This document shows positions 26,592 to 28,031 of a DNA stretch of 64,000 nucleotides, in pieces. The notes under the pieces were generated by a model, which was not told where the DNA came from, searched no databases, and saw nothing but the letters and a program-made list of their open reading frames with translations. The stretch lies in the NCBI GenBank assembly GCA_050944055.1, contig JBMNQI010000001.1, positions 14,328-78,327 on the forward strand, given 5' to 3'. How positions within the stretch are numbered: the first letter of the stretch is position 1; every line of letters starts with the position of its first letter. Position numbers and translations under genes: made by a program. The DNA comes from Oscillospiraceae bacterium (GTDB taxonomy: Bacteria; Bacillota; Clostridia; Oscillospirales; Oscillospiraceae).

Positions 26592-27352
26592 CAGCCGATA
26601 CTCCTCCCGGTGAAGATTTCAGCCATTTCACGGCTCAGTGCGTAGATTATCTCCTGCTGCTGCTCCCTGGGCAGCTCGTCTGCGCTGGCGTTGAAAAGGT
26701 AGTCCTGAAGCTTCAGCTCTTTAATGAGCATTTTTGTGTGAAACAGATTTGCCTTGCGGAGATTTTCGTCCACCGCGTCGTATTTTTCGAGTATTGAAGG
26801 GTCTATATATTCCTGGATGGAGTTAATATCGTGATCTATAAAAAGCTTTTCGCCCCGGATATTCCTCGTGAAGCCTCTGACGCGGTAGTCCATCGTAATT
26901 ATGTCCGAATCGAAGCTGCCGATGAGATAGTCCAGTGTCGACAGCGGCGTAATCTCCCCGCAGGTGGACACGTCGATATCCACGCGGAAGGTCGCTATTG
27001 AAGTGTCGGGATGGTATTCCGGGTACGTGTGGACTGTCACATGGCTTTTATCCAGATGCGCCACAACCGCTTCACCGTTCATGGGTATAAGCGAATTCTC
27101 GGCAATGAGGAAGGTTACGGAGGCGCCCTGGGGGTCGTAGTCCTGCTTTGAGACGCTCAGCACGTTCGCTCCTATCATCTCCGTAAGATTAGTCATGATT
27201 TTCGTCAGCCGTTCGGAATTATATTGTTCGTCGATATATGCTATATAGTCCTTCTGCTCGCCGGGAGTTTTAGCGTAGCACACATCGTAGATATTGAAGC
27301 TAAGCGATTTGGTGAGGTTATTGAAACCGTACAGTTTGATCTTGCTCTCCAT
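26591..27352 (-). CDS. speD: S-adenosylmethionine decarboxylase proenzyme (long, E. coli SpeD-like form)
   Basis: Motifs YGFNNLTKSLSFNIYD and AHLDKSHVTVHTYPE (self-processing region). ATG at 27352 is preceded by AGCAGGAGGT. Confidence 0.85.
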   Translation of the reverse strand: MESKIKLYGFNNLTKSLSFNIYDVCYAKTPGEQKDYIAYIDEQYNSERLTKIMTNLTEMIGANVLSVSKQDYDPQGASVTFLIAENSLIPMNGEAVVAHLDKSHVTVHTYPEYHPDTSIATFRVDIDVSTCGEITPLSTLDYLIGSFDSDIITMDYRVRGFTRNIRGEKLFIDHDINSIQEYIDPSILEKYDAVDENLRKANLFHTKMLIKELKLQDYLFNASADELPREQQQEIIYALSREMAEIFTGRSIG

Positions 27353-27385
27353 GCTGCACCTCCTGCTTGAGAATATTAGCCGGGA

Positions 27386-27428
27386 ATAAAAAATAAAAAA
27401 GCAAGCGACGGCAGGGCGCGTCACTTGC
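27386..27428 (-). terminator. intrinsic terminator inside the speD leader (putative attenuator)
   Basis: On the minus strand, GCAAGUGAC (27428-27420) pairs with GUCGCUUGC (27409-27401) as 9 bp including one G-U, with a 10-nt loop. UUUUUUAUUUUUUAUU follows, and the element lies about 35 nt upstream of the speD RBS. Confidence 0.75.
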
Positions 27429-27745
27429 TGAATTATCGAAAACTACGGACAGCAGAAATCAACTGTTCCGGAGTAAATCATGGCGTTAGAGTCTATATAG
27501 CAAAAATTACTTTTACTACTCTTATTGACCATTTCACAAGTTGCAGCGCGCTGGCGCCCGGTTATGAAGTAACCAACTTATAAAACTTGAGCGTTTCGCT
27601 CAATCAATAAGGCAACGAAGTTGCCCCTGCCTCTTCGACAGGTCTTCGGCATTTGACCCGGCCGTCCGTGTAGCCTTGACCTTAAGTTTGCGCCTTAAGG
27701 TGGTCAATAATTTTGCTTGAAAAGACTCTATGTGCCTTCTCTCAG
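27429..27745 (-). ncRNA. structured 5' leader of the polyamine operon, candidate riboswitch or attenuator aptamer (unclassified)
   Basis: Three co-linear long-range helices close a roughly 240-nt domain (+ coordinates): 27723-27728 with 27489-27494, 27711-27717 with 27499-27505, and 27701-27710 with 27522-27531. At least four local hairpins lie inside: 27680-27700, 27611-27625, 27587-27603 and 27538-27579. No convincing ORF is present. Confidence 0.5.
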
Positions 27746-27752
27746 TCTTGTC

Positions 27753-27781
27753 ATCATAACGTATATTCTATGCATAGTCAA
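27753..27781 (-). promoter_or_regulatory. candidate sigma-A promoter of the speD operon leader
   Basis: On the minus strand: TTGACT (27781-27776), 17-nt spacer, TATGAT (27758-27753). Confidence 0.55.
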
Positions 27782-27950
27782 GGATTTTTTACAGTAACTT
27801 CAGGACCGGGAATCCGTCGTATCGCGGCCGCCTGCCCGTGCAGCCGTCGGCTTTGTATAATGGCAATACTATGCATGGCGGCGAAAAACTGAAAAAACTC
27901 ATAGTGTTTTCAGTACAAATGGGTACAATAACAATAAAAATAAAAAATAC

Positions 27951-28005: not shown

Positions 28006-28031
28006 AGAGTGGGGTCTCCCCGCTCTTTTTT
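28006..28031 (+). terminator. leader terminator/attenuator upstream of rimP
   Basis: AGAGTGGGG (28006-28014) pairs with CCCCGCTCT (18-26 of 280xx) around a 3-nt loop, followed by TTTTTT. It sits between the predicted promoter and the rimP ATG. Confidence 0.6.

Follow-up and report, generated by a model that had tools for sequence, protein, structure and literature searches.

The one validated class of polyamine riboswitch is the spermidine riboswitch, a SAM-I variant that was validated in a Firmicute and works as an OFF switch by termination 5' of ldcC, speE and speB; the class is rare, its consensus alignment comprising 13 representatives (Salvail et al. 2023, PMC10853860). A second RNA, the ldcC motif, is an orphan riboswitch candidate that is widespread in Firmicutes and was described as a bulged hairpin that may form a pseudoknot between nucleotides that do not vary. 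It is located in the 5' untranslated regions of arginine, ornithine and S-adenosylmethionine (SAM) decarboxylase genes, of a C39A endopeptidase gene and of potA, and possibly serves polyamine homeostasis (Weinberg et al. 2017, PMC5737381). Here, we describe a leader RNA on the minus strand of a 64,000-nucleotide stretch of an Oscillospiraceae bacterium (contig JBMNQI010000001.1; "the window"), which precedes a polyamine operon starting with speD and contains the ldcC motif as one branch of a much larger conserved domain.

The ldcC hairpin and the larger conserved domain

When the 64-kb window was scanned with cmscan against Rfam 15 at the gathering threshold, a single match was obtained, to RF02440 (SpF59 sRNA / ldcC RNA), at 27706-27646 on the minus strand. 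The match covers model positions 1-54 of 54 and scores 63.8 bits against a gathering score of 37.2, with E-values of 3.8e-9 for the whole window and 3.9e-11 for the leader; a permissive rescan of the leader (27300-27950, E <= 10) added just three meaningless snoRNA matches. The signature of the motif, AAGGCCAUACGGACAGCCGGGUCAAAUGCCGA, is present as AAGGCUACACGGACGGCCGGGUCAAAUGCCGA in the asymmetric bulge, and the cmscan alignment flags no non-canonical pair in the outer stem UGACC/GGUCA or in the variable inner stem CACCUUAAGG/ACUUAAGGU(C). The location is also that of the published motif, since the match precedes an operon with speD and a SpeA/LdcC-type decarboxylase gene. A previous model-generated annotation made from the letters of the window (the sequence-only reading) had found no known family in this leader and held that an RNA sensor of polyamine genes in Firmicutes would be new. 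Neither statement survives: a full-length match above the gathering score lies within the leader, which by that reading's own rule for known families removes outright novelty, and ldcC was proposed in 2017 (PMC5737381) and the spermidine riboswitch validated in 2023 (PMC10853860). In the literature searched, no later work on the ldcC motif was found, and a search for a named speD, speE or speA leader motif gave nothing relevant; the "speD leader" of B. subtilis is an Hfq co-immunoprecipitation peak and nothing else, and a Borrelia termination paper is unrelated to the ldcC motif.

The RF02440 model spans 61 of approximately 242 conserved nucleotides. The whole conserved domain, which we propose to be an aptamer, occupies 27729-27488 (242 nt; this and all other leader coordinates are on the minus strand) and runs from helix P1 to helix P9 with an invariant junction strand; outside the RF02440 match it is near-invariant in approximately 190 Clostridial loci. 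These loci were gathered via SpeD or via an invariant 20-mer, and include 80 speD loci taken from species-representative genomes of Ruminococcus, other Oscillospiraceae, Lachnospiraceae, Christensenellaceae, Acetobacterium, Sporobacter and others. In the speD loci the ldcC core sits 230-470 nt 5' of speD and is followed on its 3' side by approximately 180 nt of near-invariant blocks, namely GGCAAC..GUUGCC; CUUAUUGAUUGAG..CUCAA; AUUUUAUAAGUUGGUUACUU.AUAACC; a variable hairpin; ACUUGUGAAACGGUCAAUAAGAGUAGUAAAAGUA; and ..UUUGCUAUAUAGACUCUG. Conservation and covariation in homologous loci, the check that the sequence-only reading had proposed for its leader, came out in its favour for both sequence and structure, with the 3' block found in 72 of the 80 speD loci. 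R1, a covariance model built on the 3' core (128 positions, 30 pairs), gave one match per locus in 75/80 speD loci, every one 5' of speD, and 98 matches over the 100 metagenome and viral loci searched; in the window it matches 27611-27487 with 129.7 bits (E ~1e-22). The invariant 20-mer, TCAATAAGAGTAGTAAAAGT (27528-27509), has one exact copy in the window, where 0 would be expected by chance, and exact copies on at least 120 metagenome contigs, largely from human gut.

The extended region is matched by no Rfam 15 family, a result that holds for the window and for 20 related loci, and it is missing from the main text of PMC5737381 (supplementary material aside). The conserved unit of the ldcC family is not the published hairpin; it is three to four times larger than described. 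Given that the hairpin branch (P3) belongs to a known orphan family, the leader is not categorically new; the extent of the domain, the dispensability of the hairpin and the terminator/antiterminator mechanism set out below were not found in Rfam 15 or in the literature searched.

Several copies of the element, or candidate copies, deserve mention in their own right. A full-length core (126.8 bits) lies near the end of a stretch of a contig classed as viral in IMG/VR (L201:13821-13946). On another contig (L147:2960-3040), a 45-nt fragment of the element (GAAACGGTCAATAAGAGTAGTAAAAGTGTAGTTGCTATATAAGAC) lies within what by eye is a dapF-like coding sequence 5' of pyrG, to which it adds a stop codon; R1 gives no match at this fragment, which is probably a metagenome assembly chimera. 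Apparent cases of two copies per contig were rejected, the second copies being loose pattern matches.

We next consider whether the hairpin is needed. Among core-bearing sequences checked with Rfam, 57/73 also have the ldcC core, and many Ruminococcus loci have a 1-nt indel in it. Thirteen speD loci with complete upstream sequence keep the core and lack P3, with no RF02440 match in any; 12 of them keep the terminator, the exception being L025. In L025, L054 and L070, P2 joins P4 directly without P3, while L024, L047 and L080 have an unrelated insert at the P3 position and L002 is without both P3 and P4. For metagenome instances with sufficient upstream sequence, the ldcC core is present in 94/108 and absent in 14/108 of the matches listed. 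The ldcC hairpin is dispensable, and the P2-P5 junction evidently accepts the insertion of accessory hairpins. In the other direction, 155 of 158 ldcC-core matches on the gathered contigs have the core domain on their 3' side; in two of the three exceptions the core has diverged, and the third is a coincidental match within coding sequence. How the contigs were gathered biases this sample, which is therefore uninformative on stand-alone hairpins elsewhere. When viral contigs were scanned for the ldcC core, the one match (L202) was rejected as a chance match in G+C-rich coding sequence, which leaves no unbiased example of a stand-alone hairpin.

These variants bear on the view that the 61-nt ldcC hairpin alone is the sensor and that the other 180 nt are expression platform or spacer. 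The hairpin is the sole part curated in Rfam, and its highly conserved bulge nucleotides and possible pseudoknot (PMC5737381) would suit a sensor. However, it is absent from the 13 core-bearing speD loci and from the 14 metagenome instances just described, conservation of the core equals or exceeds that of the hairpin, which is untypical of expression platforms, and the helix that competes with the terminator (P7, see below) belongs to the core. We regard a lone hairpin sensor as very unlikely.

Secondary structure of the domain

The leader folds far better than chance. Its 395 nt have a predicted energy of -132.9 kcal/mol, compared with -106.1 +/- 5.5 for dinucleotide shuffles (z = -4.84), and for the approximately 240-nt structured domain named by the sequence-only reading z is -5.47. 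The minimum free energy (MFE) fold does contain the three distal helices and the 16-nt bulge that had been reported, and the two outer helices are conserved. P1 pairs AGAGUCU (27729-27723) with AGACUCU (27494-27488); its sequence is mostly conserved and therefore shows little covariation, AGACTCT being invariant in 46/46 and 60/60 aligned sequences. P2 pairs AGCAAAAUUA (27717-27708) with UAAUUUUUGCU (27509-27499), with one bulged U, and covaries: several distinct complementary versions exist among the loci, and strands from the same locus pair better than strands from different loci (0/5,000 permutations as good).

The third of the distal helices, the 10-bp UUAUUGACCA/UGGUCAAUAA, is specific to the window and was rejected despite its energy of -11.3 kcal/mol. 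UCAAUAAG has its conserved partner inside the domain, in CUUAUUGAUU (P5, -8.3 kcal/mol), and the upstream UUAUUGACC copy is not conserved. The third helix is possible only because the window has a second UUAUUGA copy 5' of P3, and both the conserved P5 and the P3 outer stem are in competition with it. P5 itself is formed by CUUAUUGAUU at 27611-27602 and GGUCAAUAAG at 27530-27521, the latter being the strand that in the window can alternatively pair with 27711-27702. The 16-nt bulge fares similarly: it is seen on the 3' strand of the MFE fold, and its core is better described as an invariant purine-rich junction strand, AGUAGUAAAAGU (27520-27509), which together with the 3' strand of P5 makes up the 20-mer and whose columns are invariant or nearly so across 60 diverse sequences.

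The internal hairpins and the three-way junction of the sequence-only reading are real. P3, the optional branch, is the ldcC hairpin with its conserved bulge and 3' tail (27706-27646). It is followed by P3a (CCUGUC-GAAGA-GGCAGG, 27642-27626), which is lineage-specific, being shared by the window and L005, with another hairpin at this position in Ruminococcus loci. P4 (GGCAAC-UUC-GUUGCC, 27625-27611) is formed in 152/158 unique instances and has many covarying variants, such as GGCGGC/GCCGCC, GGUAAC/GUUACC, GGUGAC/GUCGCC and UGUGAAG/CUUCACA. P6 (GAGCG-AAA-CGCUC, 27601-27589) shows both-sided changes at all four pairs counted. P7 closes the three-way junction and pairs UUUUAUAAGUU (27585-27575) with AACUUGUGAAA (27542-27532) through 11 bp, of which one is G-C and two are G-U, for a duplex energy of -7.6 kcal/mol. 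Within it lie P8 (GGUUA-CUUCA-UAACC, 27574-27560), with covarying variants including GGCUAC/UAGCC, and P9 (27559-27545), a G+C-rich variable hairpin; most loci have a hairpin of differing sequence or length at the P9 position, and Ruminococcus-type loci have a plain short loop, closed by P7, instead of P8 and P9. With the conserved helix model and the terminator both enforced, the leader has an energy of -128.7 kcal/mol, compared with -133.0 for the MFE.

As a separate observation, P6 and the U-rich GUUUUAUAAG that follows it (27603-27587, minus strand) were flagged as terminator-like by a consensus scan; this is a conserved part of the aptamer, with GCUCAAAUUUUAUAAG in most homologs, and could be a programmed pause site during co-transcriptional folding.

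For the structure as a whole, RNAalifold on a MAFFT alignment of the entire domain (A1) returned just P5 and one doubtful pairing, GAGU/ACUC, since the alignment columns fall apart where lengths vary around P3 and P9; helix-by-helix tests and the 3'-core covariance model were used instead. In a 60-sequence MAFFT alignment (A2), 95.5% of the cells of P5-P8 are standard pairs, compared with 35-46% when the 3' partners are slid, and both-sided changes occur at five pairs; the observed measures were reached by 0-1 of 500 shuffles. A 76-sequence alignment (A3) gave 94.5% paired versus 35-47%, with both-sided changes at 9 pairs (36 cells), figures that lean towards R1 because A3 was aligned with the model itself. 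P5 shows changes of the compatible type only (U-G to U-A or C-G). P7 is paired in 97.4% of cells with one-sided compatible changes, and in the wider alignment two of its pairs have both-sided changes. Covariation thus gives strong support to P2, P4, P6 and P8, with compatible changes for P5 and P7, which is the conserved structured aptamer that defines one half of a riboswitch.

A terminator coupled to helix P7

The other half is the expression platform. The transcription-attenuation layout of a cis-acting structured leader, put forward by the sequence-only reading, is borne out across the family, since a terminator lies 3' of the domain in 187/193 instances. In the window the intrinsic terminator occupies 27429-27385, with a stem of 27429-27419 / 27410-27400 followed by U6AU6AUU and a hairpin energy of -18.5 kcal/mol; the terminator and U-tract are as had been reported, and the stem is 11 bp long, not 9. 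Between domain and terminator lies a spacer that differs in length and sequence from locus to locus, and that in the window forms a non-conserved hairpin (CGGAACAG-UUGAUUUCUG-CUGUCCG, 27470-27446). At the other end of the leader, a consensus scan places a sigma-70-type promoter at 27781-27753, with -35 TTGACT at 27781-27776, a 17-nt spacer and -10 TATGAT at 27758-27753. This near-consensus promoter, also noted by the sequence-only reading, matches 10/12 positions and is the top-scoring site of a 2.2-kb scan; among homologous instances a promoter-like site is present upstream of the domain in 123/152, at a median distance of 26 nt. From its position, transcription would start near 27747. The speD ribosome-binding site AGGAGG is at 27364-27359 and the start codon ATG at 27352-27350. 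Taken together, the shuffle z-scores and the layout of promoter, terminator and open reading frames show that the leader is a real observation and no chance feature.

Between promoter and speD there are short open reading frames only, of 24-35 codons, in agreement with the earlier statement that no credible one exists there. Polyamine- or ornithine-sensing leader peptides are known from other organisms, and two upstream reading frames in the window (27652-27578 and 27532-27443) could in principle sense polyamines or an amino acid and control the terminator. Their start codons, however, are at variable positions and missing from most homologs: the AUGG of the window is ACGG in 89 and AUGG in 39 of approximately 190 instances, and its AAAUGCC appears in the CUGCC form in 83/147 ldcC cores listed. 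Neither frame has a good ribosome-binding site, and the sequence is kept at the RNA level with paired covariation, so that a conserved translated frame was not found. We give leader-peptide attenuation, already ranked as the weaker alternative in the sequence-only reading, next to no credence.

What links the terminator to the domain is helix P7. In an unbiased search over a 180-nt stretch of the domain, the best pairing site of the terminator 5' half fell in a 15-nt window at the P7 3' strand (ACUUGUGAAAC) in 104/167 non-redundant instances. The median duplex energy with the P7 3' strand is -9.0 kcal/mol for domain-linked terminators (n=162), compared with -5.4 for other terminators on the same contigs (n=643; Mann-Whitney p = 9e-43) and -5.1 for shuffled 5' halves. 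CA(A/G)G is present in 83% of the cognate terminator 5' halves and in 19% of the background. A covariation test anchored on this motif, and hence independent of any pairing algorithm, showed that a G in the P7 3' strand faces a C in the terminator flank in 82 cases and a U in 16, whereas an A faces a U in 6 and a C in 0 (Fisher p = 5e-5). In the window, the proposed antiterminator combines AACUUGUGAA (27542-27533) with UUCAGCAAGU (27432-27423), a terminator-side strand that overlaps the terminator 5' strand, in a duplex of -9.4 kcal/mol that is stronger than P7 (-7.6). The complementarity of the terminator 5' strand to the P7 3' strand, the compensatory change and the stronger antiterminator duplex together point to P7 as the probable switching helix, whose 3' strand would double as the aptamer-side strand of the antiterminator. 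The competitor of the terminator is therefore an internal aptamer helix and not the outer closing helix, and by computation the leader has an expression platform whose alternative structures exclude each other and are coupled to the aptamer.

Other long, multi-helix 5' leaders of Firmicutes, such as the M-box Mg2+ riboswitch and the T-box, also let their folded state decide whether a downstream intrinsic terminator forms, and they share terminator/antiterminator competition with the present proposal. In contrast, their antiterminator usually uses the 3' end of the sensing domain, while here it would use the internal P7 3' strand, in a pseudoknot to the closing helices. Neither a T-box nor an M-box match was found in the leader at E <= 10.

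A working model can be drawn from these elements. Transcription would begin near 27747, and the first ~260 nt would form the multi-helix domain, closed by P1 and P2, with P3, P3a and P4 as branches. P5 would close a sub-domain with P6 and the three-way junction P7/P8/P9, and the invariant purine-rich strand AAGAGUAGUAAAAGU would line the central junction. In the folded domain the P7 3' strand would be sequestered, allowing the terminator (27429-27400 plus U-tract) to form and turning the polyamine operon OFF. In a domain that lacks stabilisation, the 3' strand of P7 could pair with the terminator 5' strand to form the antiterminator, giving read-through into speD (ON). The effector would most probably be an end product of the pathway, exerting feedback repression on polyamine synthesis and uptake, with spermidine or a close polyamine as the likeliest candidate.

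On balance, we favour the reading that the leader is a cis-acting, riboswitch-type transcription-attenuation switch based on P7, most probably a polyamine-sensing OFF switch; direct small-molecule binding, the identity of the ligand and the OFF direction are what we infer. The more specific proposal that the sensor is the ~165-nt core (P1, P2, P4-P9 and the AAGAGUAGUAAAAGU junction), a new and abundant riboswitch class of gut Clostridia that binds spermidine or a related polyamine directly and turns off polyamine synthesis and uptake as the terminator is released from the P7-based antiterminator, is one that we advance tentatively.

Several points weigh against the switch as drawn. The promoter and transcription start come from a consensus match alone. 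P5 and P7 are almost invariant, so that their support consists of compatible changes and architectural variants rather than rich covariation, and the A-type lineages behind the compensatory G-C/A-U change are few (8 instances). Gathering the loci via SpeD or the invariant 20-mer skews the frequencies, and many of the sequences are relatives of one another. With P1/P2/P5 in place the antiterminator is a pseudoknot, or else the domain must open; a fold that keeps both domain and antiterminator is for this reason impossible in nested folding. Moreover, equilibrium favours the terminator state (-128.7 versus -117.6 kcal/mol), and control by the switch must therefore be kinetic. The literature searched contains no measurements of binding or expression, be it for this RNA or for the ldcC family. 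Finally, an effector that is a protein and not a small molecule is also conceivable.

This last point merits more detail. A regulatory RNA-binding protein, or an effector resembling a tRNA, could act in trans by binding the domain and stabilising P7, and would in this way decide between terminator and antiterminator. The size of the domain (165-250 nt), its many helices and its long invariant single-stranded purine tracts resemble those of T-box and protein-binding leaders, and the literature searched reports no ligand for the ldcC family since 2017. On the other hand, no T-box or other protein- or tRNA-binding leader family matches the leader at E <= 10, and no candidate regulator gene was noticed beside the element, in flanks that were not searched systematically. 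Near-invariance over several Clostridial orders, combined with an association with four kinds of polyamine gene that are unrelated to one another, is in addition the usual signature of a metabolite sensor. We consider a macromolecular effector unlikely, though a serious contender to direct ligand binding.

The terminator also raises the question of whether the prematurely terminated ~350-nt leader acts mainly in trans as a small RNA (sRNA), with cis control of speD being secondary. RF02440 bears the sRNA name SpF59, the family was first seen as a Streptococcus sRNA, and a strong terminator would free a stable structured RNA. Yet the element is always directly 5' of polyamine genes, on the same strand and with one copy per locus, and the coupling of the terminator to P7 is a cis design; a trans-acting sRNA would, moreover, be compatible with the P7-based cis switch. 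That the trans role is the main one appears highly improbable to us.

Regulated genes and relation to described polyamine RNAs

In the window, the operon under control of the leader (27352-20977, minus strand) consists, according to Pfam and NCBIfam, of speD, a SpeA/LdcC-type decarboxylase that depends on pyridoxal phosphate (PLP), speE, speB (agmatinase), a carboxynorspermidine synthase homolog and nspC. Scores of SAM_DCase_Eco, speE, agmatinase and nspC exceed the curated cut-offs, the decarboxylase is a short PLP enzyme of the Orn/Lys/Arg family, and the carboxynorspermidine synthase homolog is below its NCBIfam equivalog cut-off (396.8 vs 800). With the latter and NspC at 23596-20977 (minus strand) next to the SpeD/SpeE aminopropyl route, two alternative spermidine/norspermidine routes are under one leader.

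Among the matches listed on metagenome contigs, the first downstream gene encodes a SpeA/LdcC-type decarboxylase in 62 cases, SpeD in 22, a PotA-type ABC ATPase followed by permeases in 19, a secreted Peptidase_C39_2-like protein in 5, and oddities in 2. The five Peptidase_C39_2-like cases (L087, L111, L119, L187 and L195) have no obvious polyamine link; the C39 association was already listed, as 'endopeptidase C39A', in PMC5737381. Since this gene list equals the published ldcC list, many of the published representatives may well belong to the larger RNA.

Divergently transcribed upstream of the leader are rimP and nusA. In the divergent intergenic region, a G+C-rich hairpin (AGAGTGGGGTCTCCCCGCTCT) at 28006-28026 on the plus strand is followed by TTTTTC and lies just 5' of the part of rimP that matches RimP_N, a domain that begins at residue 55 of the called rimP open reading frame; this hairpin could be an attenuator in the leader of the rimP-nusA operon.

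How does the domain compare with the two described polyamine RNAs? With the ldcC motif (PMC5737381) it shares the conserved bulge and tail sequence and the 5' untranslated region context of arginine, ornithine and SAM decarboxylase genes, potA and the C39 peptidase gene. The published model is a 54-position hairpin, whereas here the hairpin is a dispensable branch of a nine-helix domain of 165 to ~250 nt (242 in the window), and the expression platform is now defined, as P7 versus antiterminator versus terminator. With the spermidine riboswitch the proposed switch has in common its occurrence in Firmicutes, downstream polyamine genes, an intrinsic terminator competing with an antiterminator, and the logic of end-product feedback. 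The folds, however, are unrelated: neither the E <= 10 rescan of 27300-27950 nor a gathering-threshold scan of 20 related loci shows a SAM-I or SAM-clan match. The present domain is abundant in gut Clostridia, as the count of metagenome contigs above indicates.

Natural polyamine-sensing RNAs have long been disputed, and the ldcC motif has had the status of an orphan candidate from 2017 onwards. Should the 165-250-nt domain be the functional unit, experiments with the 54-nt hairpin would lack most of the aptamer and the whole switching helix, and if the core is the true sensor, this would explain why the 54-nt motif stayed an orphan. The domain boundaries (27729-27488), a helix model, a covariance model, natural variants without the hairpin and a terminator/antiterminator pair are now in hand for ligand tests. 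The element is common in Clostridia of the human gut and rumen, and its position in front of synthesis genes (speD, speA/ldcC-type decarboxylase, speE, speB and nspC) as well as of genes for uptake (potABCD) probably makes it a main control point of polyamine production by the gut microbiota.

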